The notes beneath the pieces were generated by a model. That model did no database searches, was not told where the DNA came from, and saw only the letters and a program-made list of their open reading frames with translations. From positions 1,462-65,461 of the forward strand of contig NZ_JACUTY010000005.1 in the NCBI RefSeq assembly GCF_014859555.1: a stretch of DNA of 64,000 nucleotides, in the 5' to 3' direction. This stretch comes from Thiomicrospira sp. (GTDB taxonomy: Bacteria; Pseudomonadota; Gammaproteobacteria; Thiomicrospirales; Thiomicrospiraceae). Of this stretch, positions 137-64,000 are shown one piece after another (positions within the stretch are counted from its first letter, which is position 1; each line of letters begins with the position of its first letter). Position numbers and translations under genes: made by a program.

Positions 137-1222
137 TTGAGCTTTGCAGCACGTTTATTAGCTTGGTTTGATGTGCATGGCCGTCACGATTTGCCTTGGC
201 AGCATCCGCGTTCGCCTTATCAGGTTTGGGTGTCGGAAATTATGTTGCAGCAAACCCAGGTGCAGACGGTGATTCCATACTTCGAACGTTTTATGCAGCG
301 CTTTCCTGATATTAAGGCGTTGGCGTTGGCAGAGCAGGATGAGGTTTTGGCGCATTGGGCTGGGCTGGGTTATTACGCACGTGGACGAAATTTGCACAAA
401 GCGGCTCAGATTATTGACACCCAGCATGGCGGCGAGTTTCCTGATGAATTTGAGGCGATTATAGCGTTGCCGGGAATTGGACGTTCGACCGCTGGGGCGA
501 TTTTGTCGCAGGCATTTGAGCAACGTTATGCGATTTTGGATGGCAATGTAAAGCGTGTGTTAACGCGTTATGCGGCGATTGAAGGTTGGCCGGGCCATAA
601 AAAGCTCGAAACTAAATTATGGCAATTAGCCGAAGACTTAACCCCGCCAACCCGTTTTGCCGATTACACTCAGGCGATTATGGATTTAGGCGCGACCTTA
701 TGCAAAAGAACCAGGCCCGGTTGTGATCAATGCCCGCTTAAACAGGATTGCCAAGCTTATCAAGCCGGGCGCGCCGCCGAGTTCCCTTATTCTAAGCCTA
801 AAAACCCCAAACCCATTCGCCAGGCCTGGTTTTTATTATTGTTAAACACGGATGGAAAAATCGCTTTGATACAACGCCCAAACAGCGGTATTTGGGGCGG
901 TTTGTATAGTTTGCCGGAGTTTGATTCTTTCGATGCGTTAAGCTTGGCTGGGGTGGATTTGAATAGTCTGGTAAAATGGTCGGGTATTCGGCACAGTTTT
1001 AGTCATTATCATTTAGATATGATGCCAGTGTGTGCGTTAAGTGCGCCGACTGTGGCCGAACCAAGCGAACCTTATAATTGGTTAACGATAGAAGAGGCTT
1101 TAAAAGTCGGGCTTCCGGCACCGATTAAAACCTTATTACAACGTGCATTAAATCAAACAGATGTAGAAACAAAACCTTTTGGAGGTATCTATGACAAGAC
1201 AAGTACATTGCGCAAAATTTAA
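137..1222 (+). CDS. mutY: A/G-specific adenine DNA glycosylase
   Basis: Motifs [10 protein letters not shown], Hh[20 protein letters not shown] and 4Fe-4S C-x6-C-x2-C-x5-C. Likely TTG start at 137 after AGGAG (ORF track opens at 41). Confidence 0.95.
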
Positions 1223-1460
1223 CGAAGATATGGAAGGCTTGGACTTTTCGCCTTTTCCGGGTGAGCTGGGTAAACGTGTTTACGAGAGCGTTTCTAAAGA
1301 AGCTTGGAAACAATGGTTAAGCCAACAGACGATTTTGATAAATGAATACCGTTTATCCAGTTTAGATCCGAAAGCGCGGTCGTTTCTGCAAGAAGAGATG
1401 CAAAAGTTCTTATTTGGTGATGAGGATATTGACATGCCGGACGAATTTAAGCCGGTTTAA
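1191..1460 (+). CDS. yggX: Fe(II)-trafficking / oxidative damage protection protein
   Basis: [10 protein letters not shown]...[17 protein letters not shown] family signature; GGAGG RBS at 1181; canonical mutY-yggX synteny. Confidence 0.93.
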
Positions 1461-1503
1461 GCCTTTATATGCAGCAAAATTAGAATTTTTAGGCAATAGA
1501 GTT

Positions 1504-1512
1504 TGTTATAAT
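1504..1512 (+). promoter_or_regulatory. Extended -10 sigma70 promoter element (TGTTATAAT)
   Basis: Perfect TGnTATAAT ending about 32 nt upstream of the EAL/HDOD start codon. Confidence 0.6.
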
Positions 1513-3996: not shown

Positions 3997-4018
3997 CAAC
4001 CACCAGGCCTGGTGGTTG
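3997..4018. repeat. 22-bp perfect palindrome CAACCACCAGGCCTGGTGGTTG (long intergenic copy of the iterated palindrome)
   Basis: Read directly; lies 15 nt past the thermonuclease stop codon. Confidence 0.95.
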
Positions 4019-7397: not shown

Positions 7398-9596
7398 ATG
7401 GATATTACATTTATATTAAACGACTTAAACGATGCGCAACGTGAAGCGGTAACTTTAGAAGAACGCCACGCGTTAATTTTGGCCGGTGCGGGCAGTGGTA
7501 AAACACGCGTATTGGTGCATCGCATCGCTTGGTTAACCGAAGTGATGAAATTGTCGCCGTTTAATATTCTAGCCGTCACCTTTACTAATAAAGCCGCACG
7601 TGAGATGCGGGGCCGAATGGAACAGTTAATTGGTCACCAAGCCCAGGGCGTGACCATGGGAACCTTCCACGGTATTGCTTATCGCTTATTACGCCAGCAT
7701 TATGAAGCCGCCGGCTTACCGCAAAGTTTTCAAATTTTAGATTCGGATGATCAAAAGCGTTTAGTTAAACGTTTATTAAAGGCGATGGAGCTGGATGAAA
7801 CTCAGTGGCCGGTCAAACAAGTGCAAGCTTATATTAATGGTGAAAAAGAAGAAGGGCGTCGTCCGCATCATATTGACCCGGGTCACAATCCGTTTGTAAA
7901 AAAAATGCTGCAAATTTACCAAGCTTACGAACAACAGTGTCAAAAAGCAGGCCTGGTGGATTTCGCCGAGCTGTTGTTGCGTGCGCATGAACTCTGGCTG
8001 AAACGCCCTGAGATTCTGAGTTTTTATCAAGCACGTTATAAACACATCTTGGTGGACGAGTTCCAAGATACCAATAGCTTGCAGTATGCCTGGTTGCGTG
8101 TGTTGGCGGGCGCCACGGGCAAGTTGTTTGTGGTGGGTGACGATGACCAGTCTATTTATGGTTGGCGTGGCGCAAAAATCGAAAACATTCGATTGTTTGA
8201 GCAGGAGTTTGCCGATGTTAAAACCGTGCGTTTGGAACAAAATTATCGTTCCACCGGGCGTATTCTGAAAGCCGCCAACCATATTATTGCGTTTAACACC
8301 GAACGTATGGGCAAAGAGCTTTGGAGCGCGGGCGAAGATGGCGACCCTATTCGTATCTATGAATCTTTTAACGAATATGACGAAGCCAACTATGTGATCA
8401 GCCAAGCCAAAGCGTGGGTTGAGCAGGGTGGCGAGCGTTCTGATGTCGCGATCTTGTATCGTTCCAACGCACAATCGCGCGTGTTTGAGCAGGCGTTGAT
8501 TCAAGCCGAAATGCCTTATCGAATTTATGGCGGTTTGCGGTTTTATGATCGTGCTGAAGTCAAAGACGTATTGGCTTATTTGCGTTTATTGGTAAACCGC
8601 GATGACGATGCGTCGTTTGAACGGGTTTATAACCAACCCACGCGTGGCTTAGGCGAAAAAACCATGCAAACCGTGCGTGACTTAGCACGTGATTTGGGTT
8701 TGTCTTTATGGGATGCGGCCAAGGTTCAATTGGAATCCGGTTTAACTGCACGCGCGAAAGGAGCATTGAGTGGCTTTTTGGATTTAGTCGAGCAGTTGCA
8801 AATAGATACCCAAGGTAAAAGTTTACAAGATCAAGTAATGATGGTGATTTCACGTTCTGGGCTGCAAACGCATTTTGAAAAAGACCGCTCAGAACAAGGC
8901 CAAGCCCGGGTCGAAAACTTGGATGAACTGATTAATGCGGCCAGTGGCTTTGATAAAGCCCCGCCCGCCGAGAAAAACCCCAATCCCGATGATTTAGACG
9001 CGGCGATTAGCGATAATCCATTATTAAACTTTTTAGCTCAAGCAACCTTGGAAGCCGGAGATAATCAGGCCGAAGCTTGGGAGTCGGCGATACAGCTAAT
9101 GACCTTACATTCGGCCAAGGGTTTGGAGTTTCCACTGGTCTTTATGGTCGGGCTGGAAGAAGGTTTGTTCCCGTCTAAACCCTCGTTTGACGATCCGCTT
9201 CGGCTTGAAGAAGAACGTCGCCTAGCTTATGTCGGCATTACGCGTGCTGAACAAAAGCTGGTAATGACTTATGCTTTGCGCCGACGTTTGCACGGTACAG
9301 AAATTTACGCCGGGCCATCGCGTTTTCTAAAAGAGTTGCCGGAGGATTGTTTGGATTGGGTGCGGATGACTGGCCAAGTACAAACCGCGCGTGATTGGGC
9401 GTCGTCGAGTAGCCAAAAAACTCAGCATAACGAAGCTGGTTTTGTGATGGGGCAGCGTGTGTTTCATCAAAAATTTGGTGAAGGCACCGTATTGGCGACC
9501 GAAGGCTCGGGTGATCATGCACGTATTCAGGTTAATTTTAAACACGCGGGCTCTAAGTGGTTGGTTAAGGCTTACGCCAACTTGGAGACGGTTTAA
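7398..9596 (+). CDS. uvrD: DNA helicase II
   Basis: AGAGSGKT, DEFQDTN, VGDDDQSIY, MTLHSAKGLEF and EERRLAYVGITRA motifs plus C-terminal Tudor-like domain. Confidence 0.96.
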   Translation: MDITFILNDLNDAQREAVTLEERHALILAGAGSGKTRVLVHRIAWLTEVMKLSPFNILAVTFTNKAAREMRGRMEQLIGHQAQGVTMGTFHGIAYRLLRQHYEAAGLPQSFQILDSDDQKRLVKRLLKAMELDETQWPVKQVQAYINGEKEEGRRPHHIDPGHNPFVKKMLQIYQAYEQQCQKAGLVDFAELLLRAHELWLKRPEILSFYQARYKHILVDEFQDTNSLQYAWLRVLAGATGKLFVVGDDDQSIYGWRGAKIENIRLFEQEFADVKTVRLEQNYRSTGRILKAANHIIAFNTERMGKELWSAGEDGDPIRIYESFNEYDEANYVISQAKAWVEQGGERSDVAILYRSNAQSRVFEQALIQAEMPYRIYGGLRFYDRAEVKDVLAYLRLLVNRDDDASFERVYNQPTRGLGEKTMQTVRDLARDLGLSLWDAAKVQLESGLTARAKGALSGFLDLVEQLQIDTQGKSLQDQVMMVISRSGLQTHFEKDRSEQGQARVENLDELINAASGFDKAPPAEKNPNPDDLDAAISDNPLLNFLAQATLEAGDNQAEAWESAIQLMTLHSAKGLEFPLVFMVGLEEGLFPSKPSFDDPLRLEEERRLAYVGITRAEQKLVMTYALRRRLHGTEIYAGPSRFLKELPEDCLDWVRMTGQVQTARDWASSSSQKTQHNEAGFVMGQRVFHQKFGEGTVLATEGSGDHARIQVNFKHAGSKWLVKAYANLETV

Positions 9597-9619: not shown

Positions 9620-10630
9620 TTAAAGTGCCACTTTGCGAGAGAAGGCTTCAAAACTGACTAGCACAAATGGATTGGTTTGATAACCTAGTTGCAGTGGTGC
9701 ATGCACGCCGGGTGTAATCGATAAAAATAGCCAGTTATCATAAAATTGGTTACGCCAGCTAAACTGCAAATAAGTATCAAGTTGGCTGAAATTTTGTTCT
9801 GGTGTCCAGTCCCATAAACGCCCTAGGCGGTAACTGAGGCGGTTGTTGCTATCCCGGTTATGTCGCCATTCAAACACCTGTGCCACCTGCCATGCAGGCA
9901 ATTCATCGTACTTAAACACATTCGAAGTGGCCCGCAAATAATGCTTGTCATCATACTGATACGCTAAGTTTAACGTGCCTTCTTTACCTGTTCCCTCAAT
10001 ATGACGCCAAAATAATTCCGGCTCAAAGGTTACAAACCAAGCAGGGTTAATCGCCCATTCAAATCTCAATTTAGCCGTGCTATAAGGGTTTAATTGCCCA
10101 CCGCTCAGGCGTGTGCCAGTGCGGACTTTAAAACCGACCACATCCGACACTCGATAGATGGCACTCAAACCTAATAAGGTTTCTTGCTCGGCGTCTAACT
10201 GGCTTAGTTCGCTCGACTGGGCGCTCCGTTCATCCGGCCCAGCAAAGGACTCGATATATAGATTCCAACGTTTTTGGGTTTTGGGTAAGTGGGCGATCAA
10301 TTTAAATGTCAGTTGGTTTTGTTGCGCTAGATGCAGTGAGCTTTGATGGCTGAGCGTGGTTTTGATCAGCGATTTGCCTTCGGGCACGTCGGATTCGGGC
10401 GTAAAAAACCGATCAATACTGTTGGCATAACGATCAACGTAATTGGTTAACCAGGCCATGCTGTCTTTAATGGTTGCCAACTCAAAATTCAATTCAAATT
10501 TTTCCCCATTATCGCGGGATGTTTCCATGCTAGGCGAGCCGGCTTGAGCCGTTGCCGAATAAGCTAGCGCCCAAAATAAAAAACTTAAGCTCAGCCAAAG
10601 CCATGTTCTGAAGTTTTTGTGGGTCGGCAT
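9620..10630 (-). CDS. Hypothetical exported protein, possibly an outer-membrane beta-barrel
   Basis: 336-aa ORF with N-terminal signal peptide (ATAQA) and aromatic-rich amphipathic strands. Confidence 0.6.
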   Translation of the reverse strand: MPTHKNFRTWLWLSLSFLFWALAYSATAQAGSPSMETSRDNGEKFELNFELATIKDSMAWLTNYVDRYANSIDRFFTPESDVPEGKSLIKTTLSHQSSLHLAQQNQLTFKLIAHLPKTQKRWNLYIESFAGPDERSAQSSELSQLDAEQETLLGLSAIYRVSDVVGFKVRTGTRLSGGQLNPYSTAKLRFEWAINPAWFVTFEPELFWRHIEGTGKEGTLNLAYQYDDKHYLRATSNVFKYDELPAWQVAQVFEWRHNRDSNNRLSYRLGRLWDWTPEQNFSQLDTYLQFSWRNQFYDNWLFLSITPGVHAPLQLGYQTNPFVLVSFEAFSRKVAL

Positions 10631-10750: not shown

Positions 10751-11533
10751 ATGGTTTCCTGGCTGATTTCAACCGACTTAGATGGCACTTTGTTAAATCA
10801 TAAAACCTATGACTACACCGGGATTGTTGCGTTATTGGCGAAGTTAGAAATGCAGGCAGTGCCAGTGATTTTGAACTCCAGTAAAACCCTAGCCGAGCTC
10901 ACAAAGTGGCGTCAAACCCTGCATTTAAAATGGCCAGTGATTGGTGAAAATGGCGGGGTTATTCAAGTAGATCAGTCGCCACCGATGTTAATCGGCCGAC
11001 CAATTAACGAAATAAGGGCGTTTTTAAACCGCTGGCGAGACCATCATGGCCAGCTGTTTGAAGGTTTTGGTGATTGGTCAGTCGAGCAGGTGATCAAGCA
11101 TACCGGGCTAAGCCGAGAAGATGCTTTGAATGCTCAACAGCGTTTGGTTTCCGAACCGATTTTATGGTTGGCTGAACCACCAGGCCTGGTGCTATTGGAA
11201 CAGGCTTTAGCACAGCAGGGTTTGCAGCTTCAAAAAGGTGGCCGTTTTTATCATGTGATGGCACAACATTCCAAGGCCAGCACGCTCAAAATTCTACTCA
11301 AAAACAGTGATCGCTATTTGGGCGATCAGACCGATTGGCATCTACTCGCATTAGGTGATGGCGAAAATGACCGCGCGATGCTCGAAATGGCCGAGGTTGC
11401 GGTGGTAATGCCGGATGCTAGTGGCCAATATTTAAGCCTAGATTCAAATAATCAAATCTATCAAGCCCAACAATCCGCCCCGCAAGGTTGGTTGGATGCG
11501 GTCAATCGGTGGGTATTAAAGGAGGCGGAATGA
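10751..11533 (+). CDS. gpgP: HAD-IIB glucosyl/mannosyl-3-phosphoglycerate phosphatase (GpgP/MpgP family)
   Basis: TDLDGTLL, NSSKT, GENGG and LGDGEND motifs; first gene of the cluster. Confidence 0.85.
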   Translation: MVSWLISTDLDGTLLNHKTYDYTGIVALLAKLEMQAVPVILNSSKTLAELTKWRQTLHLKWPVIGENGGVIQVDQSPPMLIGRPINEIRAFLNRWRDHHGQLFEGFGDWSVEQVIKHTGLSREDALNAQQRLVSEPILWLAEPPGLVLLEQALAQQGLQLQKGGRFYHVMAQHSKASTLKILLKNSDRYLGDQTDWHLLALGDGENDRAMLEMAEVAVVMPDASGQYLSLDSNNQIYQAQQSAPQGWLDAVNRWVLKEAE

Positions 11534-12741
11534 GCGATTTTTTCCAAAACGGCACAATCACAACTCTACACAATTTAACGCGGCGAGATTTGTCGGAGCT
11601 TGAGTGGGATTTGGTGAACTTCTCCCGTGAACGCCCCTTGGGTTTGGTGCTGCCTTCTTTATATAGTGAGCTTGAAGGCGAAGCCTTAACCCATATTCTG
11701 GACGAGCTGGAACGTGTGCCTTATTTATCCGAAATTGTGGTCGGTTTAGATCAAGCCGATCAAGCCCAGTTTGAACATGCCAAACACTTCTTTGCACGTT
11801 TACCTCAGCCACATAACATTCTGTGGAACGATGGCCCCCGATTGCAAAAAGTCATGCAACCACTTAAAAAGTTAAGCTTGGCGCCCACCGAACCGGGTAA
11901 AGGCAAAAATGTGTGGGGTTGTTTTGGTTATATCTTGGCCTCCGGTAAAACATCGGTGGTGGGATTGCACGACTGTGATGTGCTGACTTATAACCGTGAA
12001 ATGTTGGCGAGGTTACTTTATCCGGTCGCCCACCCCACTTTTAACTTTGTGTTTTCGAAGGGCTATTACGCGCGTTATTCAGACGGACATATGAATGGAC
12101 GCGTTGCGCGATTGCTCGTAACGCCGTTATTACGCAGCTTAGAAACCGTATTGGGACAGGATGATTTAATTACCTATTTAGATTCATTTCGTTATCCGTT
12201 AGCCGGTGAGTTTGCGCTGGAAGTGAATGCATTAAAAGATGTGCGAATCCCGAGTGATTGGGGATTGGAAATCGGAATTTTGGCTGAAATTCGACGTAAC
12301 TATTCTAACCGCCGCGTGTGCCAAGTTGAGATTGCGGATCGTTACGATCACAAACATCAAAAAGTTTCGTTTAATGATGTTAATGCCGGTTTATCGCGCA
12401 TGAGCCAAGATATTGCCAAGTCTTTGTACCGTAAGTTAGCCATCAGCGGCCATCAGTTTTCGCCGCAAACCATGCGCACGATCCGAGCGGTTTATCACCG
12501 TACCGCGCTGGATCAATTGGAGTCTTATGCGTTTGATGCCCAAATGAATGGTTTGTCGTTAGATCGTCACGAAGAGGAACGGGTGGTTGAGCTGTTTGCG
12601 GATAACTTATTAGTCGCCGGAAACGCTTTTATGGAAATGCACGACGATAAACCCTTTGTGGCCAATTGGAATCGGGTGATTAGTGCTTTCCCAGATATCT
12701 TAGAAGAACTTAAACACGCGGTAGAGCAGGATAACGCTTAA
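11530..12741 (+). CDS. gpgS: Glucosyl-3-phosphoglycerate synthase (GpgS-type glycosyltransferase)
   Basis: MSDFFQNGTITTLH N-terminus, GKGKNVW, HDCD, GRVARL, YPLAGEF and DWGLEIG. ATG at 11530 overlaps the gpgP stop (ATGA). Confidence 0.82.
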   Translation: MSDFFQNGTITTLHNLTRRDLSELEWDLVNFSRERPLGLVLPSLYSELEGEALTHILDELERVPYLSEIVVGLDQADQAQFEHAKHFFARLPQPHNILWNDGPRLQKVMQPLKKLSLAPTEPGKGKNVWGCFGYILASGKTSVVGLHDCDVLTYNREMLARLLYPVAHPTFNFVFSKGYYARYSDGHMNGRVARLLVTPLLRSLETVLGQDDLITYLDSFRYPLAGEFALEVNALKDVRIPSDWGLEIGILAEIRRNYSNRRVCQVEIADRYDHKHQKVSFNDVNAGLSRMSQDIAKSLYRKLAISGHQFSPQTMRTIRAVYHRTALDQLESYAFDAQMNGLSLDRHEEERVVELFADNLLVAGNAFMEMHDDKPFVANWNRVISAFPDILEELKHAVEQDNA

Positions 12742-12753
12742 GGAGTTGAAGGT

Positions 12754-14529
12754 ATGAGTCAGATGATATTTGAGCGCATTAAGCATCGTTTAGAAAAACT
12801 CTACCCGCTGGAATCGGCGAAAGATGCGTATCAAGAATTAAACCGACTGATTCAAATCTGCGGCGTCGAACCGGAGCTTGAAGTTGAACGCTGGAACCAA
12901 GAAGATGTGGTGTTAATTAGTTACGCCGACAGTATTATTGACAGCGAACAAGGCCATCAACCTTTGCAAGTGTTGCGTGAGTTTCTGCAAGAGTATGTCA
13001 AAGATGCGGTGAATACGATTCACCTGTTGCCGTTTTTTCCATTTAGTTCTGATGATGGCTTTTCGGTGATCGATTTTGTCAAAGTCGAGCCGGACTTTGG
13101 TGACTGGCCGGATATTCAGGCCATCAGTGCGGATTACCAACTCATGGTGGATTTGGTGATTAATCATATCTCGCGTGAGAGTTTATGGTTTACCGATTAC
13201 AAAGCCGATGTGCCACCGTTTAATCGGTTTTTTATTGAAGTGGATGGCCGCGAAGATGTGACGATGGTGGTGCGTCCACGAAACTCGCCGTTATTGGTGC
13301 CGGCTTATACCCACCGTGGACGCAAAATGGTTTGGGCGACCTTTAGTGCCGATCAGATTGACTTAAACTTCGAAAATCCCGCTGTTTTGGTGAAAATGAT
13401 TGAAGTCTTGTTGTTTTACGTTAAACAAAAAACCCATATTCTGCGTTTAGACGCAATTGCATTTTTATGGAAAAAACTCGGTACTAACTGCATTCATTTG
13501 CCCGAAACCCATGAGGTAGTGAAACTGATTCGTGATGTATTTGAATTGGTAAATCCGAACGGCATGGTTTTAACCGAAACCAACGTTCCGCACAACGAAA
13601 ACCTATCCTACTTTGGGCAGCAAGACGAAGCGCATTTGGTGTATCAATTTAGTTTAGCGCCTTTGGTGTTACATGCTTTATACCGTGGCGATGGTGCTTA
13701 TTTAACCCAATGGGCGCAACAACTTAAACCACCGGCGCAAGGCTGTAACTTTTTGAACTTTACGGCGTCGCATGATGGGATTGGTTTACGTCCGGTCGAA
13801 GGTATTTTGCCGCAGCGGGAAATTGAAGATTTGATCACCGGTATGCACCGTCAAGGTGGTTATATTTCGATGCGTACTCGGCCAGATGGTTCAGAGTCAC
13901 CCTATGAAATCAACATCGCTTTGTTTAGTGCATTTCGTGAAACCGCCAACAGCCAAGGCCCGGATCAGTGGCAGGTGGATCGGTTTATTAATTCGCAATT
14001 AATTATGTTGAGTTTGCAGGGCATCCCAGCCATTTATATCCACAGTTTATTGGCCACTGAAAACGATCAAACCGGGGTAGAGCGCACCGGTAGAACCCGC
14101 AGCATCAATCGCAAAAAATGGGATAAAACCTATTTAAAAGCCTTGTTGGATGGTCAAAACACCGCCAACTCGCAAGTTTTAAACCGCTTAATTCATGTGT
14201 TGAAACGCCGCAAAAAACACAAAGCCTTTCATCCAGATACGTCACAAAAAGTGTTGGATTTAGGTACGGGGTTTTTTGCGGTTTGGCGCGGGTTAGGTGA
14301 ATTAGATTTTCCATTATTATCAATTTTCAATTTAACCAGTGAGGTTAAAGAACTCGATATTCAGCATGAAATTGGATTCGAGAGTGCTGAAGGTTGGGTG
14401 AATATTTTAGATCACGAACATTATGAACCTCAGAATCAGCTGTTGGTTTTGCAGCCATACCAAGTATTGTGGTTAATGCCGGATAACGTTGATAACGTTA
14501 GCCCGTTATGGGCAATGAGCACCAGTTAA
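12754..14529 (+). CDS. GH13_18 sugar phosphorylase, likely glucosylglycerate phosphorylase
   Basis: HLLPFFPFSSDDGF, DLVINH, RLDAIAF, TETN, SHDGIG and PYEIN motifs. ETN/YE variants are typical of the glucosylglycerate-specific branch rather than sucrose phosphorylase (EIH/YQ). Confidence 0.82.
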   Translation: MSQMIFERIKHRLEKLYPLESAKDAYQELNRLIQICGVEPELEVERWNQEDVVLISYADSIIDSEQGHQPLQVLREFLQEYVKDAVNTIHLLPFFPFSSDDGFSVIDFVKVEPDFGDWPDIQAISADYQLMVDLVINHISRESLWFTDYKADVPPFNRFFIEVDGREDVTMVVRPRNSPLLVPAYTHRGRKMVWATFSADQIDLNFENPAVLVKMIEVLLFYVKQKTHILRLDAIAFLWKKLGTNCIHLPETHEVVKLIRDVFELVNPNGMVLTETNVPHNENLSYFGQQDEAHLVYQFSLAPLVLHALYRGDGAYLTQWAQQLKPPAQGCNFLNFTASHDGIGLRPVEGILPQREIEDLITGMHRQGGYISMRTRPDGSESPYEINIALFSAFRETANSQGPDQWQVDRFINSQLIMLSLQGIPAIYIHSLLATENDQTGVERTGRTRSINRKKWDKTYLKALLDGQNTANSQVLNRLIHVLKRRKKHKAFHPDTSQKVLDLGTGFFAVWRGLGELDFPLLSIFNLTSEVKELDIQHEIGFESAEGWVNILDHEHYEPQNQLLVLQPYQVLWLMPDNVDNVSPLWAMSTS

Positions 14530-14530
14530 A

Positions 14531-53010: not shown

Positions 53011-54314
53011 GCCGTAATATCCGCTTTGTGGAGTAAGGCATAATAAAAGCCATCCATGCCCTCTTCACCAGGTAGGATTTGTTTACCAATCTCGCCTTGC
53101 CCCCAGTCGCCAGCCATGGATTGCAATTGAGCATCGTTTTGGCGCTGCAAAAAGGCCGCAATTTGCTGTGTATTTTCTTGCGGTAACACCGAACAGGTGG
53201 CATAAAGCAATTGGCCGCCAGGTTTCAGTGTTTGCCAAAGTTGATCTAATAAATGCGCTTGAATCACGACCAAGGCCTCAATATCTTCTGGACGACGGTG
53301 ATGTTTGATATCTGGATGGCGCCGAATAATACCGGTCGCCGAGCAGGGCGCATCCAGCAATATCTGATCGAAGGGTTGGCCGTCCCACCAGGTTTCAATA
53401 TCGCCCGCATCGGCCACTTTCGTGTGCACATCAAGCTGAAGGCGCGCCAAGTTTTCCTGCAAACGTGGCAACCGATCGGCTTGTTTTTCAAGGGCCAACA
53501 ACCAGGCCTGGTTATCACAAAATTCAAGTAAATGTCCGGTTTTACCGCCGGGGGCAGCACAGGCATCTAACAGGCGCATGCCCGCTTGTGGCTGTAAAAT
53601 CAACGCAGCTTGTTGCGCGGCGATATCTTGCACACTAAAACCACCCTGTTCAAAACTCGGTAATTGGCTGATATCTACCGGACTGGTTAAAGCAATACCG
53701 ACTGGGCTAAGAGGGTGCGCATGAGCTGAAACCCCGACTTCGTTTAGTTGGCTTAAAAAGACATCACGTGTTTGCACACGTTGGTTCACTCGTAAAGTTA
53801 ACGGAGCCGTTTGATTGTTTTGTTGCAAAATTTGTTCATATTGATCTGGGTAAGCCTGTTTTAAATTCTTAACTAGCCAGGCTGGGTGGGAGGTTTGCAT
53901 GCCAATGTCATTAGGTAGCTTGGATAAAATGGCTTCTCTGTCACGTAGAAATGTACGTAAAACGCCGTTTAATAGACCACGAGCCCAAGGCTTTTTGAGC
54001 TTCTGACTTAAATTCACGGTTTCTGATACTGCCGCATGATCGGGCGTATCCAGATACAAAAGCTGATAAAGCGCGAGCAGAATTAAGCTGTTAATGTCTT
54101 CGTCTTTGGCTTTGAGTGGTTTGGCTAATAATTGATCACGCACCGCAACTAAACGCTGGTACCAGCGCAAGCAGCCAAACACCAGGTTTTGGGTAAAAGC
54201 TCGATCGCGCCGATCGGAAATAGCCTGTAAGGCATTCGGCAAAGCTTGGCTAAGTGATTGACCCTGGTGAGTCACATTTAACAACGCATTAAGAGCAGCA
54301 CGACGTGGATTCAT
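53007..54314 (-). CDS. rsmB: 16S rRNA m5C967 methyltransferase
   Basis: NusB-like N-terminus, DACAAPGGKT, LDAPCSATG and YATCS. Confidence 0.96.
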   Translation of the reverse strand: MNPRRAALNALLNVTHQGQSLSQALPNALQAISDRRDRAFTQNLVFGCLRWYQRLVAVRDQLLAKPLKAKDEDINSLILLALYQLLYLDTPDHAAVSETVNLSQKLKKPWARGLLNGVLRTFLRDREAILSKLPNDIGMQTSHPAWLVKNLKQAYPDQYEQILQQNNQTAPLTLRVNQRVQTRDVFLSQLNEVGVSAHAHPLSPVGIALTSPVDISQLPSFEQGGFSVQDIAAQQAALILQPQAGMRLLDACAAPGGKTGHLLEFCDNQAWLLALEKQADRLPRLQENLARLQLDVHTKVADAGDIETWWDGQPFDQILLDAPCSATGIIRRHPDIKHHRRPEDIEALVVIQAHLLDQLWQTLKPGGQLLYATCSVLPQENTQQIAAFLQRQNDAQLQSMAGDWGQGEIGKQILPGEEGMDGFYYALLHKADITA

Positions 54315-54326: not shown

Positions 54327-55253
54327 TTAAATAAGCGTTTTGCCGATGACATTGCGCGCTTGGCAAAAGTCATAGGCCGACATAGGTTTTTTACCCGCCG
54401 GTTGCAACTGCGTAATACGCACCAAGCCTTCGCCCGCCATTACGTCCACACCGAGTTTTTCTAATAAAATCATTTCGCCGGGTTTGTCGTGTTTGGGACC
54501 GTCTAAGGCTTGTGCTTGTAAAATACGCAAAGGCTGGCCGTCAAAATGCGTGAAGGCCATCGGCCAAGGATTAAATGCATGAATTCGACGTACGATGTGC
54601 TGGGCGGATAAAGACCAATCAATTTCGGCTTCGGCTTTAGTCAGCTTGGCGGCATAGCAGGCCTGGTGGTCTTGCTGTGCTTCTGGGTTAAGCTGAATAA
54701 GTTTTGCCAGTGTGTCTAATAAAGCTTGTGCGCCCATCGGAGCTAGGCGGTCATGCAGTGTGTGGGCCGTATCATTCGGTCGAATATCGGTTTCGAGCTT
54801 ATACAACATAGCACCCGTATCTAAGCCGGCATCCATTTGCATAATGGTAATGCCAGTTTGTTGATCCCCGGCTTCAATCGCGCGTTGAATCGGCGCCGCA
54901 CCACGCCAGCGAGGTAACAAGGAGGCGTGAATGTTTAGACAGCCTAGCTTGGGTGTGTCTAGCACCGTTTGCGGTAGAATCAAGCCATAAGCCACCACCA
55001 CCATAATATCCGCATTTAACGCGGCCAACTCAGTTTGGGCTTCGGGTGTTTTAAGGCTTTCGGGTTGAAATACAGGCAGATTGTGTGCGAGCGCGAGTTG
55101 TTTGACTGGGCTGGGCGTGAGTTTTCGACCACGACCCGCTGGACGGTCAGGTTGGGTATAAACCCCGACCACTTGATGCGCTGAATCCAATAAGGCTTGC
55201 AAAGGCGCGACCGAAAACTCTGGTGTACCAGCAAAAATAATTCGATAACTCAT
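54327..55253 (-). CDS. fmt: Methionyl-tRNA formyltransferase
   Basis: FAGTPEF, QPDRPAGRG and NIHASLLPRWRGAAPI. ATG at 55253. Confidence 0.97.
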   Translation of the reverse strand: MSYRIIFAGTPEFSVAPLQALLDSAHQVVGVYTQPDRPAGRGRKLTPSPVKQLALAHNLPVFQPESLKTPEAQTELAALNADIMVVVAYGLILPQTVLDTPKLGCLNIHASLLPRWRGAAPIQRAIEAGDQQTGITIMQMDAGLDTGAMLYKLETDIRPNDTAHTLHDRLAPMGAQALLDTLAKLIQLNPEAQQDHQACYAAKLTKAEAEIDWSLSAQHIVRRIHAFNPWPMAFTHFDGQPLRILQAQALDGPKHDKPGEMILLEKLGVDVMAGEGLVRITQLQPAGKKPMSAYDFCQARNVIGKTLI

Positions 55254-55855: not shown

Positions 55856-56968
55856 ATGAATAAAAATGCCGACAATACCGAGCTGACCCTTTGGCTGCGA
55901 CTTCATTTGGCTTATTTAAGCGCCAAGCAGGTTCAGCGGGTTGTGAATCATATAGGTGACTTCGCGCAATTGGCGTATACTCAACGTTCAGACTGGTTGC
56001 CAGTGCCCAAAATTACTGAGAAGCAGGCCGATGCGTTTTTTCAGGTAGAAGAGGCGCAAATTCAACAAGCCTTAGACTGGGCGCAGCAACCCAATCACCA
56101 TATTGTTACGCTAGACGATGACGCTTTTCCAGAGCTGTTGCGCGAAATTTCTGACCCACCCATTTTATTGTATGTGCGCGGTGATTTGAGCTTGTTAAAA
56201 AGTCCGCAACTAGCGGTGGTTGGCAGTCGTCACGCATCACGCCAAGGCCTGCAAATTGCAGAAGACTTTGGTGAGCACCTGTCTCGCGTCGGCTTGTGTA
56301 TCACGAGTGGTTTAGCGCATGGCATAGACGCCGCCGCCCATCGCGGTGGCTTGCGTGGACAAGGTCAAACTTTAGCCGTGGTGGGCACGGGGTTAGACCG
56401 AATTTATCCGGCCGCCAATCAAAACTTAGCACGCCAAATTGCCGAGCAAGGTGCGATTGTTTCGGAATATCCACTTGGTACTCGACCTTTGGCACAGAAT
56501 TTTCCTAAACGTAATCGAGTGATCAGCGGCATGTCCACTGGCTGTTTGGTGGTGGAGGCGGCCTTAAAAAGTGGCTCTCTCATTACCGCTCGTCAGGCCA
56601 TGGAACAAGGGCGCGAAGTATTTGCGGTTCCGGGTTCAATCAATAACTCGTTGGCGAAAGGTTGTCATCAATTGATTAAACAAGGCGCCAAACTGGTCGA
56701 GTCGGCGCAAGACGTGTTGGAAGAGTTGGCCCCTTTGGTAGCCTTCAGTTGGGATAACGATAACACCAAGCCTGAAACATCAGCACCAGGCCTGGTCGAA
56801 CAAACAAAACATCCGTTATTGGCGGTGGTGGAGTACGAGCCGATAAGTTTAGATGAGTTGGTGGTGATGACAAAAATGGCCGCATCGGATATCCAGGCTC
56901 AAATGATGATTCTGGAACTCAGTGGTCAAGTGGAGTCCCTTTCAGCCGGACGCTGGCGACGCATATAG
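55856..56968 (+). CDS. dprA: DNA-processing protein DprA
   Basis: AVVGSR, SGLAHGID, FPKRNR, SGSLITA and REVFAVPG; C-terminal winged helix. Confidence 0.96.
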   Translation: MNKNADNTELTLWLRLHLAYLSAKQVQRVVNHIGDFAQLAYTQRSDWLPVPKITEKQADAFFQVEEAQIQQALDWAQQPNHHIVTLDDDAFPELLREISDPPILLYVRGDLSLLKSPQLAVVGSRHASRQGLQIAEDFGEHLSRVGLCITSGLAHGIDAAAHRGGLRGQGQTLAVVGTGLDRIYPAANQNLARQIAEQGAIVSEYPLGTRPLAQNFPKRNRVISGMSTGCLVVEAALKSGSLITARQAMEQGREVFAVPGSINNSLAKGCHQLIKQGAKLVESAQDVLEELAPLVAFSWDNDNTKPETSAPGLVEQTKHPLLAVVEYEPISLDELVVMTKMAASDIQAQMMILELSGQVESLSAGRWRRI

Positions 56969-57051
56969 TCATCAGGTTTGCAGCTGAGGTGGATTTGGAT
57001 TATATTAAACATTAAAGCTTTCATTATTTTAATGAAACAAGGAGCGTTAAC

Positions 57052-57432
57052 ATGTTAAAGAAATGGACGAGTGCGGTATTGGCTTTAGCCTTTTTAGGTT
57101 TATCAACTATGCCGTTGCAAGCTGCGATGGTATCAACTGATGAATTAATTTCAACGCAACAAGCCCAAATGGACCGTGAATCTATCGCGGCTTTATTAGA
57201 TCGTGCTGATGTACAAGAAAAATTGGTCGCGATGGGTGTAACAGTCGGTGATGTTGAACAGCGTATTGCCTTAATGACAAACGCAGAAGTGGCACAACTG
57301 AACCAACAAATAGCCGACTTGCCAGCGGGTGAAGGTGTGGTTGGTATATTGGTGTTATTGTTTGTTATTTTCGTCGTCACGGATGTAATTGGCGCAACGA
57401 ATATTTTCCCGTTCATCAGACCGGTTCGTTAA
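57052..57432 (+). CDS. PA2779-family exported/membrane protein, copy 1
   Basis: Signal peptide, AMVSTDELI...VEQRIALMT...LPAG...TDVIG...FPF pattern; AGGAG RBS. Confidence 0.82.
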   Translation: MLKKWTSAVLALAFLGLSTMPLQAAMVSTDELISTQQAQMDRESIAALLDRADVQEKLVAMGVTVGDVEQRIALMTNAEVAQLNQQIADLPAGEGVVGILVLLFVIFVVTDVIGATNIFPFIRPVR

Positions 57433-59026: not shown

Positions 59027-59229
59027 CGCTGAGTGCTACCAGGCCTGGTGGTAATAAATCGAAGCTAATAGTTGTAAAACCAAACATTTGATCGCAATAT
59101 ATTTGGGTTTTTGCATCACAATGGTTACAATCGCGACAAATTACGGTGTAATGACTTTTTGATTTTTAATGTTTGCATTATGAATAAAATTTTTGCAGTC
59201 TTTATATAGAGCGTCATACACAAACATTA

Positions 59230-59409: not shown

Positions 59410-61878
59410 ATGAAGAATTTGGTGATAGTAGAGTCGCCGGCCAAGGCCAAGACCATCGAACAATATCTGGGCAAAGATTTTACTGTGCGCTCCAGTTACG
59501 GACATATTCGTGACTTGTCGAAAAAAGGTATGGGGATTGATCTGGCTAATCGATTTGAGCCGAGCTATGAAATATCACCGGACAAAAAGAAAACCGTCAC
59601 CGAGCTGCGAAAGCTCGCTAAAGAGGCCGATGCGGTTTGGTTGGCGACGGATGAGGACCGCGAAGGGGAAGCCATTGCTTGGCACCTAGCGGAAGCCTTA
59701 AAGCTGAATGTGGCAGAAACCAAACGTATCGTATTCCACGAGATCACCAAAGATGCGATCACCCATGCGGTCGCGCATCCGCGTACCGTGGATCTAAACT
59801 TGGTGAATGCGCAACAAGCACGTCGAATTCTAGATCGTGTGGTCGGGTTTGAATTATCGCCAATCTTGTGGAAAAAAATTCGTACTGGGCTCTCGGCCGG
59901 TCGTGTGCAATCGGTTGCGGTGCGTTTGATTGTTGAACGTGAACGTGAAGTTGACGCTTTTAATGCGCAAGTGTCTTATAAAGTTCAAGGCCAGTTGCAA
60001 CCAATTGGTGAGCAGGGCGAACTCGGCGAAACGTTTAATGTGAAACGTGTTGCCGGTTTTGAAACCGAACAGCAAGCGCAACAGTATTTAGAAGCGCTGG
60101 CGTTATCCAGCTTAAAGGTTGAAAACCTAGAACAAAAACCCGCCAAACGTGCGCCTAAAGCGCCGTTTACCACTTCAACTTTGCAGCAGGAAGCCTCACA
60201 AAAACTGGGATTTTCGGTCAAACAAACCATGGTGATTGCCCAGCGTTTATATGAGTCCGGTAAGATCACTTATATGCGTACCGACTCAGTCAACCTGTCG
60301 GAAACCGCGATTGCGCAAGCTAAGCAAACCATTGAATCTGATTTTGGCGCGAAATATAGTCATCCACGTCGGTTTAAAACCAAGCAAGCGGATGCCCAAG
60401 AAGCCCACGAAGCCATCCGCCCCACCGAGTTTTCGGTGCGCGAAGTCAATGGCGAGCGCAACGAACAACGTTTATATCAGCTAATTTGGCGACGCACGAT
60501 GGCCTCGCAAATGGCGGAAGCTGAACTGCTGCGCACCACGGTCGATATCAGCGTGAGTGAATTGGCGCAAGAAAGATTACAAGCCAAAGGTGAAATGGTC
60601 ACGTTTGATGGCTTCCTAAAGGTTTATAACCTTGACGGAACCAAAGATGACGATGTGTTGCTGCCAGCCATGCAAGTGGGTCAAGCGCTTAATTTGGTTG
60701 AGATGGTCGCCAAACAAAGCTTCAGTCGTGCACCAGCACGTTACAACGAAGCCAGCCTAGTCCGTACCCTAGAAGAAATGGGAATTGGTCGTCCCTCTAC
60801 TTATGCACCCACCATTGATACAGTTCAACAACGTGGCTATGTAGTCAAAGAGGATCGCGAAGGCACACCACGCGAAATTCGTCAGCTCACCCTTAGTGGT
60901 GGAAAAGTCGAAGCCGAAACCTTGTCTGAAATGGCGGGGGCGGAAAAAAACAAACTTTTCCCAACCGATATTGCTGGCATAGTGAATGACTTTTTAGTGA
61001 AAAACTTCGGTGAAGTGTTGGATTATAAGTTCACCGCTAAGGTCGAAGCCGAGTTTGATGAAATCGCGACAGGCGACCAGGCCTGGCAGGATATGTTGGA
61101 AAGTTTTTACACCAAGTTTCATCCGAAAGTTGAAGTGGCCGAAACGCTTTCTAGAGAAGAGGCTGGTCAAGCGCGGGCGTTGGGTGATGACCCTAAAACC
61201 GGCAAACCCGTGTTTGTTAAAATCGGACGTTTTGGCCCTTATGTTCAGCTAGGCGAAGGCGAAGATGATGAAAAACCCACCTTTGCCAGTTTAAGACCCG
61301 GCCAAAAAATGGATACGCTGAAGTTAGATGATGCGATGGAGTTGTTTAAATTACCTCGCAGTTTGGGCGAAATGCCTGAGTCCTATTCAGCTAAAGCCGC
61401 CGATGGCACCGAGTTTGTTGTCGAAAAAGGTCAAACCTTGATCGCCAAACAAGGGCCATTCGGGCCTTATTTGGAATACGGCGAAAAACTGTTTGCGCCG
61501 ATCAAAGGTTACGATCCATTAAGCATTACTTTAGACGAAGCGGTGGTGTTGGTTGAAGCCAAAATTCAAGCCGATGCGGACAAAATTGTGCGTAGCTTCG
61601 CGGGCACGGATGTCAAAATACTCAATGGCCGTTGGGGACCATATATTACGGATACCTCAACCAAGGTGAATGCTAAAATTGCCAAAACCGAAGACCCGAA
61701 TGATTTGACCTTAGAAGAATGTCAAAAACGTTTAGCTGAAGCACCACCACCTAAAAAACGTGGCCGAGCCGCGGCTAAAAAACCCGCCGCCAAAAAAGCG
61801 ACGGCTAAGAAGGCCCCCGCTAAAAAACCAGCGGCCAAAAAGCCCGCCAAAAAGCCCGCGACTAAAGCTAGCAAATAG
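59410..61878 (+). CDS. topA: DNA topoisomerase I with C-terminal repeats and Lys/Ala/Pro-rich tail
   Basis: IVESPAKA, ATDEDREGE, SAGRVQ, ITYMRTDS, GIGRPST, GRFGPY repeats and PAKK tail. Confidence 0.97.
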   Translation: MKNLVIVESPAKAKTIEQYLGKDFTVRSSYGHIRDLSKKGMGIDLANRFEPSYEISPDKKKTVTELRKLAKEADAVWLATDEDREGEAIAWHLAEALKLNVAETKRIVFHEITKDAITHAVAHPRTVDLNLVNAQQARRILDRVVGFELSPILWKKIRTGLSAGRVQSVAVRLIVEREREVDAFNAQVSYKVQGQLQPIGEQGELGETFNVKRVAGFETEQQAQQYLEALALSSLKVENLEQKPAKRAPKAPFTTSTLQQEASQKLGFSVKQTMVIAQRLYESGKITYMRTDSVNLSETAIAQAKQTIESDFGAKYSHPRRFKTKQADAQEAHEAIRPTEFSVREVNGERNEQRLYQLIWRRTMASQMAEAELLRTTVDISVSELAQERLQAKGEMVTFDGFLKVYNLDGTKDDDVLLPAMQVGQALNLVEMVAKQSFSRAPARYNEASLVRTLEEMGIGRPSTYAPTIDTVQQRGYVVKEDREGTPREIRQLTLSGGKVEAETLSEMAGAEKNKLFPTDIAGIVNDFLVKNFGEVLDYKFTAKVEAEFDEIATGDQAWQDMLESFYTKFHPKVEVAETLSREEAGQARALGDDPKTGKPVFVKIGRFGPYVQLGEGEDDEKPTFASLRPGQKMDTLKLDDAMELFKLPRSLGEMPESYSAKAADGTEFVVEKGQTLIAKQGPFGPYLEYGEKLFAPIKGYDPLSITLDEAVVLVEAKIQADADKIVRSFAGTDVKILNGRWGPYITDTSTKVNAKIAKTEDPNDLTLEECQKRLAEAPPPKKRGRAAAKKPAAKKATAKKAPAKKPAAKKPAKKPATKASK

Positions 61879-61965
61879 TTGAAGTTTAAAAGGCCGTCAA
61901 GGCCAAGCGGTTTGGGATAAAATAGCCAACTTTCCGCGCCACCTATTTACGCAAACGAGACAAGC

Positions 61966-63729
61966 ATGAAAACAAAATTAAACCAAATTTTGATTGAAGT
62001 AGCCGATCAACTTAAACAGCAGGGTGTGATTCCGGCTGACCAAGACGTTAAGGTTCAAGTTGATCCAACCCGTGATAAAGCGCATGGTGATTTTGCCACC
62101 AACCTTGCTATGACACTTGCCAAACCAGCGGGATTGCCGCCACGTGAGTTGGCCGCCAAAATTATTGCGTTATTACCCGCACAATCGGTGATCACCAAAG
62201 TTGAAATGGCTGGCCCTGGTTTTATTAACTTTTTTGTTGATGATCAAGCCAAGTTTGCCGTGGTGCAACAAGTGCTGCAACAAAAAAACCAGTTTGGTCA
62301 AAATGGTGCCGGACAAGGGCGTTCGGTGTTAGTCGAATATGTGTCGGCTAACCCAACCGGGCCTTTGCATGTCGGTCACGGTCGCGGTGCGGCTTATGGC
62401 GCGAGTTTGGTGAATCTGCTTGGGTTTGCCGGTTTTGATGTGACCGCCGAATATTATGTTAATGATGCCGGTCGTCAGATGGATATTTTAGCGACGTCGG
62501 TCTGGTTACGTTATTTAGAAATTTGTGGCGAGCAATTCCCGTTCCCAAGTAATGGTTACAAGGGTGACTATATTTATGCCATCGCGCGTCAATTGTTTGA
62601 CCAGCACGGCGATGCGTTACGTAAACCGGCGTTTGAAGTCTTTGCCGGTGCCTTCCCAGATGAAGGTCAAGACGGTGGCGATAAAGAAAAACACATTGAT
62701 GCCTTGATCGAGCGCGCTAAAGCCTTATTAGGCGGAGTGGATTTTGAACAAGTTTTTAGCTTAGCCATAAAGGATATTCTGACCGATATCGAAGAAGACT
62801 TGTCGGAGTTTGGGGTTAAGTTTAATAATTGGTTTTCTGAGCGTTCATTAATGCATACTGGCGTGGTGGATGCAGCGCTGGAAAAGTTGCAACAAGCCGA
62901 TAAAATTTACGAAAAAAATGGCGCACTTTGGTTTCGTTCAACCGAATATGGTGATGAAAAAGACCGGGTGGTGGTGCGCGATAATGGCTTAAAAACCTAT
63001 TTTGCGTCGGATATTGCCTATCACTTTAATAAACTTGAACGCGGTTACGAAACCATCATTGATATTTGGGGATCTGACCACCACGGTTATATTCCACGTG
63101 TAAAAGCGGCGATGCAAGCGATGGAAACCAATCCAGATGCGTTGCAAGTGTTGTTAGTGCAGTTTGCGATTTTGTACCGCGGCGGCGAACGTGCGCAGAT
63201 GTCAACGCGAAGCGGTCAGTTTGTGACCTTACGTGAATTGCGTGAAGAAGTCGGTACCGATGCGGCGCGTTTTTTCTATGTCGCACGTAAATCCGAACAA
63301 CATATGGATTTTGATTTAGATTTGGCCAAATCGCAATCTAACGACAATCCGGTTTATTATATTCAATATGCGCATGCTCGTATTTGTAGCGTATTGGGTC
63401 AGTTGGCTGAAAAAGGTTATGCGCTTGACGAAGCGATGGGCTTGGCTAATTTAGATCAGTTAAGCACCGAGCACGAAGTGGATTTGGCGACCAAATTAGC
63501 CCAGTTTCCAGATTTAATTGGACGCGCGGCGCTGGCTTATGAACCACACCAAATCGCCTATTATTTAAAAGAATTGGCGCATGGTTTACACAGCTATTAC
63601 AACTCGGAGCATTTTATTGTCGAACAAGCCGAGTTACGTAATGCACGTATGGTGCTGATTTTAGCCGTGCAGCAAGTTTTGCAGAACGGCTTGGCGATTA
63701 TCGGTGTTACCGCGCCTGAGAAAATGTAA
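61966..63729 (+). CDS. argS: Arginine--tRNA ligase
   Basis: SANPTGPLHVGHGR, GSDHHGY, MSTRSG and YIQYAHAR. Confidence 0.97.
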   Translation: MKTKLNQILIEVADQLKQQGVIPADQDVKVQVDPTRDKAHGDFATNLAMTLAKPAGLPPRELAAKIIALLPAQSVITKVEMAGPGFINFFVDDQAKFAVVQQVLQQKNQFGQNGAGQGRSVLVEYVSANPTGPLHVGHGRGAAYGASLVNLLGFAGFDVTAEYYVNDAGRQMDILATSVWLRYLEICGEQFPFPSNGYKGDYIYAIARQLFDQHGDALRKPAFEVFAGAFPDEGQDGGDKEKHIDALIERAKALLGGVDFEQVFSLAIKDILTDIEEDLSEFGVKFNNWFSERSLMHTGVVDAALEKLQQADKIYEKNGALWFRSTEYGDEKDRVVVRDNGLKTYFASDIAYHFNKLERGYETIIDIWGSDHHGYIPRVKAAMQAMETNPDALQVLLVQFAILYRGGERAQMSTRSGQFVTLRELREEVGTDAARFFYVARKSEQHMDFDLDLAKSQSNDNPVYYIQYAHARICSVLGQLAEKGYALDEAMGLANLDQLSTEHEVDLATKLAQFPDLIGRAALAYEPHQIAYYLKELAHGLHSYYNSEHFIVEQAELRNARMVLILAVQQVLQNGLAIIGVTAPEKM

Positions 63730-64000
63730 TGGCGCAAGACTTTCGACATGCGCCGATGCGTCGTAAGACTTATCAGCGCAAATCTCAACTCAATCCTGAT
63801 TCAAGTTCCACATCTACCAGGCCTGGTGGTTCGTTTAGCTCAGCTCAAACCTTATGGTTAGTGGGTTTCGTATTAAGCCTTGTACTCGTTACGGTGTTTT
63901 TTGTGGTTAAACACTTTGCCTCGCAAGGGGTAAAAGCCTCCGAATCACGTAGCAGCCAAGTATATCAAGCACAAACGCCCGTTTCGGTTGAAGCTGATAA
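63729..64000 (+). CDS. 5' part of a SPOR/FtsN-like protein (runs off the window)
   Basis: ATG overlaps the argS stop; MAQDF...basic region then a TM helix (LWLVGFVLSLVLVTVFFVV); open to the window end; argS-SPOR synteny is common. Confidence 0.65.
   Translation, partial: MAQDFRHAPMRRKTYQRKSQLNPDSSSTSTRPGGSFSSAQTLWLVGFVLSLVLVTVFFVVKHFASQGVKASESRSSQVYQAQTPVSVEAD

Follow-up and report, generated by a model that had tools for sequence, protein, structure and literature searches.

A highly iterated palindrome of Thiomicrospira and its relatives, maintained in the DNA and imprinted on proteins in all three reading frames

The stretch of DNA analysed here (the window), a 64-kb segment of a Thiomicrospira chromosome with a GC content of 45.6%, carries an ordinary set of chromosomal core genes: hemE, rho, trxA, uvrD, bio, his and tat genes, a cbb3 oxidase with fixGHI-type assembly genes, trkAH, def-fmt-rsmB, dprA, topA and argS. 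Scattered over it are 28 copies of the palindromic octamer CAGGCCTG, hereafter the core, from 821-828 to 63818-63825. Twenty-four copies (86%) fall inside long open reading frames (ORFs), where they are read as QA[W/C] (11 copies), as xGLV (10 copies: eight PGLV, one AGLV and one SGLV) or as xRPG (three copies), and the other four are intergenic. The motif thus occupies coding DNA in all three frames as well as non-coding DNA, as do the highly iterated palindromes (HIPs) known from cyanobacteria. These gene-by-gene readings had been made in a first-pass annotation of the sequence, and each of them proved correct. The gene names given there agree with Pfam, which confirms as core carriers MutY, an EAL/HDOD protein, UvrD, a HAD hydrolase, glycerate kinase, a ComF-like protein, BioB, BioF, BioH, BioC, DUF1275, a PNPOx/HutZ-like protein, two P-type ATPases, FecCD, DUF255, IGPD, FixH, RsmB, Fmt, DprA and TopA. 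The exception is the supposed SPOR gene downstream of argS, which has no Pfam match in the window; the end of its homologue in T. microaerophila (L003) is SPOR-like by eye.

By Markov models of order 0 to 3 the window should contain 0.65-1.1 copies of the 8-mer, and 0.04-0.14 of the 10-mer; the 28 8-mers seen represent an enrichment of about 30-fold over chance. At 0.44 copies per kb, this octameric, GC-rich palindrome lies above the thresholds applied to HIPs, i.e., a density of more than 0.2 per kb and an enrichment of more than about 15-fold. Coding DNA has 0.41 copies per kb and non-coding DNA 0.74, a difference that is not significant. Many cores are part of longer forms, namely CCAGGCCTGG (n = 22), ACCAGGCCTGGT (n = 16) and CACCAGGCCTGGTG (n = 7). 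The full consensus in this genome is AACCACCAGGCCTGGTGGTT, and superimposing its two arms yields the half-site consensus AACCACCAGG, in which information falls outward from C at position 5 from the centre (50/56) and A at position 6 (46/56); for positions 7 to 10 the agreement is only about 55%.

The best fit to the 20-bp consensus is found in the intergenic copies, each of which lies just 3' of a gene end. Two of them are perfect 20-bp palindromes of the form AACCACCAGGCCTGGTGGTT: one at 3998-4017 (core from 4004), located 3' of an SNase-like gene and 5' of hemE, and one at 19751-19770 (core from 19757), between the convergent ends of bioF and a DsrE-like gene. The remaining two have their cores at 14534-14541, between the convergent ends of an alpha-amylase-family gene and glxK, and at 59040-59047, 3' of a C39-peptidase/TPR gene and upstream of topA. 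Spacing between cores does not depart from random placement within these 64 kb (coefficient of variation 0.87; Kolmogorov-Smirnov P = 0.21). A preference for DNA-metabolism genes was considered and rejected, as five of the 24 genic cores lie in such genes, about 13% of the coding DNA, by an informal count that is not significant. Palindromes of the type NGGCCN other than the motif fall below expectation in the window (0.25-0.71), with observed/expected ratios of 0.58 for AGGCCT, 0.71 for TGGCCA, 0.38 for CGGCCG and 0.25 for GGGCCC. GGGCC is rare throughout the family, and AGGCCT stands at 0.43 of expectation in relatives poor in the motif; restriction avoidance or decay through cytosine methylation could account for this deficit of GGCC palindromes.

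The peptides specified by the core are present in the window at 5- to 20-fold over the number expected from amino-acid composition, an excess for which the first-pass annotation had proposed to test: QA[WC] occurs 14 times (2.6 expected), PGLV nine times (0.4 expected) and TRPG three times (0.14 expected). All of this excess sits on cores, and copies of the peptides off the cores are at expectation. The spelling CAG GCC TG is used in 11 of the 14 QA[WC] peptides, where codon usage predicts 1.4. Codon frequencies predict 0.26, 0.35 and 0.013 cores in the three frames, compared with the 11, 10 and 3 present, so that the frame that requires the rare AGG codon holds the fewest cores but shows the strongest enrichment. 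AGG was rightly described as rare elsewhere; it makes up 2.0% of Arg codons (19/970), and three of the 19 are within cores. Across genomes, QA[WC] reaches 7.2-7.5 per 10,000 codons where the motif is abundant and 2.1 in motif-poor relatives. Tripeptides enriched in this way, together with other residues at the same positions in orthologues from motif-free relatives (see below), are a hallmark of uptake sequences.

The nearest genome, a Thiomicrospira metagenome-assembled genome (MAG; L004), encodes a BioB 97% identical to that of the window and is collinear with it over 20 kb at 82% nucleotide identity. L004 retains every one of the 14 alignable cores (12 genic, 2 intergenic), and neither genome has a private core, whereas retention is 24% for all 8-mers, 21% for 8-mers with six G/C, 2/11 for control palindromes of 75% GC and 0/6 for one-off variants of the core. 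Third-codon positions inside cores are identical in 30 of 30 cases, compared with 60.9% outside (P = 3.4e-7). Conservation beyond that of control palindromes and beyond that of codons is the standard by which Xu et al. (2018) assessed HIPs, and both are found here. A force on the DNA itself, be it selection or a repair bias, rather than on the encoded peptides, keeps the motif, and the earlier claim that selection acts on the DNA stands in this sense. The flanks are held less tightly: the core at 14534 is retained in L004 with different outer flanks, and the copy at 19757 retains its core and left arm. In the more distant L005, four of seven cores are common with the window, compared with 10% of all 8-mers, and nine cores are private to L005. 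Turnover of cores therefore occurs, but it is slow. Creation is slow as well, since the window and L004 have gained no core over approximately 18% divergence.

Comparison with orthologues at 16 coding sites indicates how the copies came to lie in genes: four sites differ by synonymous changes only, one is intermediate, at ten sites residues have been replaced, and one has no outgroup. The four synonymous-only sites are in uvrD (7948-7955, + strand; AGLV), bioC (22208-22215, +; RQAW), bioF (19166-19173, +; HQAW here, [HY]QAW among relatives) and hisB (35999-36006, - strand; RPGLV). At these the peptide is already present in relatives, and motif-rich genomes spell it by the motif while motif-poor genomes use assorted codons. 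For example, AGLV of UvrD is encoded by GCA GGC TTG GTC in the close relative L002 (Thiomicrospira MAG BF2_24) and by GCA GGC CTA GTT in L005. The core is present in 13 of 23 bioC orthologues, the rest of which spell QAW with CAA GCN. In hisB, 13 orthologues encode RPGL[VET] by other codons, and L018 and L028 also have the core. The bioF site is an old one, retained across genera; 20 of 29 family orthologues read CAG GCC TGG among freely variable adjoining codons, and motif-poor genomes have CAA GCA, CAG GCT, CAG GCG or a changed residue. The intermediate site is in bioH (21100-21107, +; NQAW), where Trp is conserved, QA is variable and the core is found in 5 of 24 family orthologues.

At the ten other sites the peptide is missing from motif-free orthologues. 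In bioB (18405-18412, +), Leu or Met has given way to Trp within a conserved block: QAWC of the window contrasts with Q[AS][LM]C in 29 of the 30 orthologues free of the motif. L002 retains the derived Trp, spelled CAG GCT TGG, which is an amino-acid fossil of a decayed site. The core in the HAD-family hydrolase gene (11181-11188 within 10751-11533, +; PPGLV) is common to L004, and L005 has DSLFT. The core in glxK (14940-14947, -; TTRPG with the rare AGG codon) is common to L004 and L005, and L002 has HLEG. In the comF-like gene (16874-16881, -; QPGLVV near the C-terminus), L004 alone has the core, and the other 29 family orthologues differ without any gap. RsmB (53503-53510, -; NQAW) has QAW where L093 has QAD (CAA GCC GAT) and others have KAR, QSR or EAK. 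L093 has the cores in fmt (54658-54665, -; HQAC) and topA (61078-61085, +; DQAW); other orthologues have [LF]VT in place of QAC in Fmt and, at the two residues replaced in TopA, 12 others have [LMI][QE]W with no gap. The three remaining sites are in dprA (56787-56794, +; APGLV), at the boundary between the DprA and winged-helix domains in a segment that is hypervariable with indels among relatives; in the DUF255/YyaL-like gene (29889-29896, -; HQAW), in an indel-rich segment with the core in 0 of 21 orthologues and gaps at the site in 16 of 21; and in the ORF downstream of argS (63818-63825 within 63729 to the window end, +; STRPGG with an AGG codon), in an N-terminal stretch that varies and in which relatives have an 8-residue gap.

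The first-pass annotation had proposed that the motif may drive amino-acid substitutions and had set against this the case in which motif-free orthologues carry the same peptides with random synonymous codons. That case is found at the minority of sites described above (uvrD, bioC, bioF and hisB) and fails at ten, so replacement at 10 of the 16 sites compared upholds the proposal. Gain by substitution rather than by insertion is also upheld, as the alignments are ungapped at the site in comF (29/29), bioB (30/30), topA (12/12), hisB (13/13), bioF (9/9) and rsmB (5/5). Insertion is possible only at dprA, yyaL and the argS-downstream ORF, because all relatives have indels there, which leaves these three ambiguous. 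The suggested placement of copies in loops and linkers holds in part: the segments in dprA, comF, rsmB and the argS-downstream ORF are variable, but over 11 sites the motif-encoded residues have a mean conservation percentile of 0.39 within their own proteins, which is about average. The extremes are rsmB (0.06), dprA (0.10) and hisB (0.79), and the tendency toward poorly conserved residues across these 11 sites is weak and not significant.

The other genic cores are as follows. At the start of the window, mutY (41-1222, +) has a core at 821-828 (RQAW) and the EAL/HDOD gene (1545-2759, +) one at 2614-2621 (PPGLV). Five successive cores are common to L004: two in the DUF1275 gene (-), at 23201-23208 (WQAW) and 23473-23480 (SGLV), one in the PNPOx/HutZ-like gene (25201-25208, -; HQAC), one in a P-type ATPase gene (26791-26798 within 25349-27385, -; VRPG with an AGG codon) and one in the FecCD permease gene (27862-27869, +; DPGLV). 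This P-type ATPase aligns only with L004 and with an unreliable match of 23% identity. Two further cores are in FixH/ccoH (42307-42314, +; NPGLV) and in the P-type ATPase gene FixI/ccoI (44269-44276, +; SPGLVV), whose sole match is paralogue-like at 37% identity.

The core is enriched at many loci of Thiomicrospira, Thiomicrorhabdus, Hydrogenovibrio and Thiosulfatimonas. In the window pooled with 24 motif-rich relatives there are 208 cores, compared with 8.1 expected, and in 13 motif-poor relatives there are four, compared with 2.6 expected; among the loci fetched, the core is absent outside the family. BioB places the window in Thiomicrospira (Piscirickettsiaceae, Gammaproteobacteria), and since the closest genomes are Thiomicrospira spp., the cyanobacterial host common to all described HIPs is not the host here. 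In the BioB tree, motif-poor genomes form several separate groups, giving a patchy distribution, and T. microaerophila lies inside a motif-rich clade and must therefore have lost the motif secondarily. Several sublineages no longer have the motif, and the copies in them decay. Flanks also vary by group, with ACCAGGCCTGGT, with nCCAGGCCTGGn, or with a core that lacks the C/G flank. L002 has lost the sites of the window and has four cores of its own, at 700, 6163, 7939 and 9881, all four preceded by a 5' G and three of the four in the form GCAGGCCTGC, which suggests that the flank preference has shifted rather than that the motif was simply lost.

Copies of the motif or of the window were also seen in viral and environmental collections. 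L179:1-12462 (IMG/VR IMGVR_UViG_3300001336_000470), with a GC content of 42%, is a fragment of a temperate phage encoding an integrase, a CI-like repressor, Ant, O/P-like replication proteins, a RecE-like exonuclease, an HNH endonuclease and SSB. It has four cores in 12.5 kb, all with 5' AC and three as full ACCAGGCCTGGT; at 0.32 per kb, a phage is therefore able to carry the motif at host-like density. Scanning a viral collection for the 14-mer returned 28 contigs with a single copy each and no phage-borne array. As for window positions 14000-20000, a 'volcano metagenome' run is near-identical (96% of sampled words), and soda-lake, sediment and lake-water metagenomes contain related strains (6-28% of words), which fits an alkaliphilic Thiomicrospira group.

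What reads the motif may be approached through its symmetry. The two arms show no covariation beyond the base preference of each, and their flanks are independent; selection thus does not act on complementarity as such, a result that speaks against palindrome-extending repair and against a role as hairpin, cruciform or terminator. The half-site was rejected as the unit because ACCAGG and CACCAGG, standing alone, show no enrichment. Involvement of CCWGG (Dcm-like) was likewise rejected, as CCWGG outside the palindrome occurs at expectation (0.91). One-step variants of the core are unconserved and, with one exception, CAGGCCCG/CGGGCCTG (1 observed, 11.4 expected), occur at expectation. We rejected this deficit as the signature of a ratchet by deamination and very-short-patch (VSP) repair because it is explained by the family-wide scarcity of GGGCC, which extends to motif-poor genomes. 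Independent flanks, no excess of half-sites or CCWGG and no cloud of variants therefore suggest that a factor with two-fold symmetry recognises the motif as duplex DNA. Such a reader would be strict for the 8-bp core and would have graded, species-specific preferences to about 10 bp on each side. It must be dispensable, as it has been lost repeatedly.

Among known systems, the cyanobacterial HIPs are the closest parallel. HIP1 is GCGATCGC, and its alternates are GGGATCCC, TCGATCGA and CAGGCCTG itself, the last being the palindrome enriched in Synechococcus sp. PCC 6312, a cyanobacterium poor in HIP1 (0.37 per kb, observed/expected 14.7; PMC5861425, bioRxiv 10.64898/2026.06.24.733823), in which its conservation could not be assessed because a comparison genome is lacking (PMC5861425). 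Like HIPs, the Thiomicrospira motif is an 8-bp, 75%-GC palindrome within the range of 0.2-3 copies per kb and 15- to 300-fold enrichment, is genic in all frames and intergenic, is conserved above control palindromes between related genomes, has species-variable flanks and is lost or replaced in some lineages. The host differs, being a gammaproteobacterial family rather than a cyanobacterium, and so do the reach of the graded consensus, which here extends to 20 bp, and the one-off variants, which are unconserved here (0/6) whereas HIP1* is conserved. GGCC, the centre of the octamer, is a known methylation target in cyanobacteria (bioRxiv 10.64898/2026.06.24.733823). Elhai connected HIPs with methyltransferases that recognise them and put forward a ratchet by methyl-directed repair (PMC4390886), whereas Xu, Lawrence and Durand argued from a conservation test of the same design as ours that HIP1 is under selection (PMC5861425).

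The palindrome is a HIP of the Thiomicrospira/Thiomicrorhabdus/Hydrogenovibrio lineage, kept at the DNA level, and on balance we lean toward a modification, repair or recombination module as its reader. The likeliest reader would be an accessory, sequence-specific module of this kind, as proposed for HIP1, which has been linked to an orphan methyltransferase, and with such a module a density near one site per 2 kb would be advantageous throughout the genome. New copies come about in situ through point substitutions. Where QAW, PGLV or AGLV already exists, a site is made by fixing the required synonymous codons; elsewhere it takes the replacement of one to three residues, in positions whose conservation is close to average or below it, and all three frames serve, including the one with the rare AGG codon. 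Once finished, a copy stays unchanged while synonymous sites around it diverge. In sublineages that have lost the motif, T. microaerophila among them, copies decay, in at least some cases with the synonymous positions going first, and amino-acid fossils such as the Trp of L002 BioB remain. It is tempting, though rather doubtful, to attribute HIPs in two phyla to one transferable determinant with fixed CAGGCCTG specificity, e.g., a methyltransferase/nuclease or a DNA-binding module.

Several points weigh against a HIP with such a reader. Neither a Pfam search of the window genes nor motif regular expressions applied to the fetched loci revealed a gene for a DNA methyltransferase, Vsr or a restriction enzyme. 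It would be unusual for a methyltransferase to have flank preferences graded across 20 bp, and these suit a protein of DNA binding or DNA uptake equally well. The motif data for this genome come from 64 kb, the pooled counts are not independent because the relatives' loci are largely orthologous, and by conservation alone a strong bias of repair or conversion cannot be told from natural selection.

The most serious rival, which we nevertheless consider unlikely, is a DNA uptake sequence: competent cells would prefer DNA bearing the palindrome, and uptake followed by recombination would spread it by molecular drive. Density (about 0.4 per kb, in all frames), genus-level flank dialects, a consensus of core plus graded flanks, the presence of comF and dprA in the window and the phage with its host-like density are all consistent with this, as is the enrichment of encoded tripeptides, which Findlay and Redfield described for the uptake signal sequence (USS; PMC2817400) as an imprint of uptake sequences on the proteome. 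The likeness to the USS of Pasteurellaceae and the DNA uptake sequence (DUS) of Neisseriaceae extends to frame use biased by codon acceptability and to gain by substitution with other residues in motif-free orthologues (PMC2817400); the QA[WC] excess of about 5-fold compares with a roughly 2-fold tripeptide excess reported for USS. However, USS and DUS are asymmetric and have a demonstrated uptake bias, whereas the Thiomicrospira motif is a strict palindrome with equivalent, independent half-site flanks. Uptake bias would be expected to leave a graded cloud of variants, whereas one-off variants are neither enriched nor conserved. We know of no report of natural transformation in the Thiomicrospira lineage. 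Finally, enrichment of the identical octamer in a cyanobacterium (PMC5861425) is hard to reconcile with a lineage-specific pilin receptor. A HIP-type reader is favoured over an uptake sequence because of the strict palindrome, the lack of near-variants and the occurrence of the same word in another phylum.

Very-short-patch repair in E. coli, a system tied to a cytosine methyltransferase, skews the frequencies of CCWGG-related words, and CCAGGCCTGG contains two CCWGG. By analogy, a neutral ratchet in which a VSP-like, methyl-directed repair bias converts near-cognates to CAGGCCTG and reverts mutations, with no benefit to the cell, would account for action on any resident DNA, prophage included, and for rapid decay after loss of the system. 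Word frequencies are altered genome-wide in E. coli too, but the effect sizes are orders of magnitude apart, those of VSP repair being far below 30-fold; CCWGG is not in excess outside the palindrome here, and some relatives retain the core without the CC/GG flank. We judge the ratchet, which Elhai proposed for HIP1 (PMC4390886), distinctly improbable, given that no one-step variant is depleted beyond the scarcity of GGGCC, that neither the window nor L004 gained a core as they diverged, and that Xu et al. inferred selection on HIP1 from like conservation (PMC5861425). A structural element, i.e., a DNA or RNA hairpin or cruciform acting as a terminator or mRNA stability element, is highly improbable: the positions of the four intergenic copies 3' of genes and the two perfect 20-bp palindromes would suit it, but the arms lack covariation beyond their own base preference, 86% of copies are intragenic, L004 keeps the core but not the outer arms, and at the intergenic copies inspected by eye, e.g., 19757, no T-run follows the hairpin in either direction. 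Scarcely credible, lastly, is an origin in selection on the peptides, in biased codon use or composition, or in the insertion of a small mobile element. At a few sites (bioF, bioC and hisB) the QAW and PGLV peptides are indeed ancestral and have been conserved, but one DNA word underlies three unrelated peptides in three frames and the intergenic copies, codon spelling is invariant inside cores, Markov and codon models predict about one copy, and motif-poor sister genomes of similar composition lack the motif. As short, GC-rich palindromes in many copies, repetitive extragenic palindromes (REP), bacterial interspersed mosaic elements (BIME) and miniature inverted-repeat transposable elements (MITE) resemble it; REP and MITE copies are inserted and intergenic, unlike a motif that is intragenic in 24 of 28 copies, in frame, and gained by substitution without change of length, with ungapped alignments at no fewer than 11 sites.

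HIP1 and uptake sequences had already shown that an iterated DNA word can leave its imprint on proteins, and the present case is a new example rather than a new principle. What it adds is a new host group, with a HIP-type motif throughout a gammaproteobacterial family of sulfur oxidisers; we found no report of the motif in the Thiomicrospira lineage in an incomplete coverage of the literature that included the genome paper of H. crunogenus XCL-2. It also provides a natural experiment, in which close relatives with and without the motif display recruitment, replacement, retention and decay at orthologous sites. Because motif-rich and motif-poor genomes are interleaved in one family and decay is visible, whole-genome comparison could pinpoint the genes that make or read HIPs. 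The question of what makes and reads HIP1 is about 30 years old, and this pattern of presence and absence offers a practical route to the machinery. The motif could further be used as a lineage marker, and it biases local codon and amino-acid statistics.

The 20-bp copies also create spurious joins in metagenome assemblies. Contigs of a soda-lake metagenome (X2) end in approximately 22 bases that match several copies of the palindrome, and apparent skips of 10-13 kb join window positions 4014-4017 to 14522, 14929 and 16867; these are an assembly or alignment artefact of the repeated palindrome and not real deletions. The collinear 20-kb alignment with L004 has a single break, between the cation-efflux gene and comF, where L004 (8601-9057, opposite window 16586-16622) has about 450 bp extra. 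Three ORFs in the window have no Pfam match at E <= 1e-5: 9620-10630 (-, 336 aa), 57024-57416 (-, 130 aa) and 11488-12741 (+, 417 aa). The last lies between the HAD hydrolase and alpha-amylase-family genes, beside that for glycerate kinase, and may be part of a compatible-solute cluster of glucosylglycerate type.

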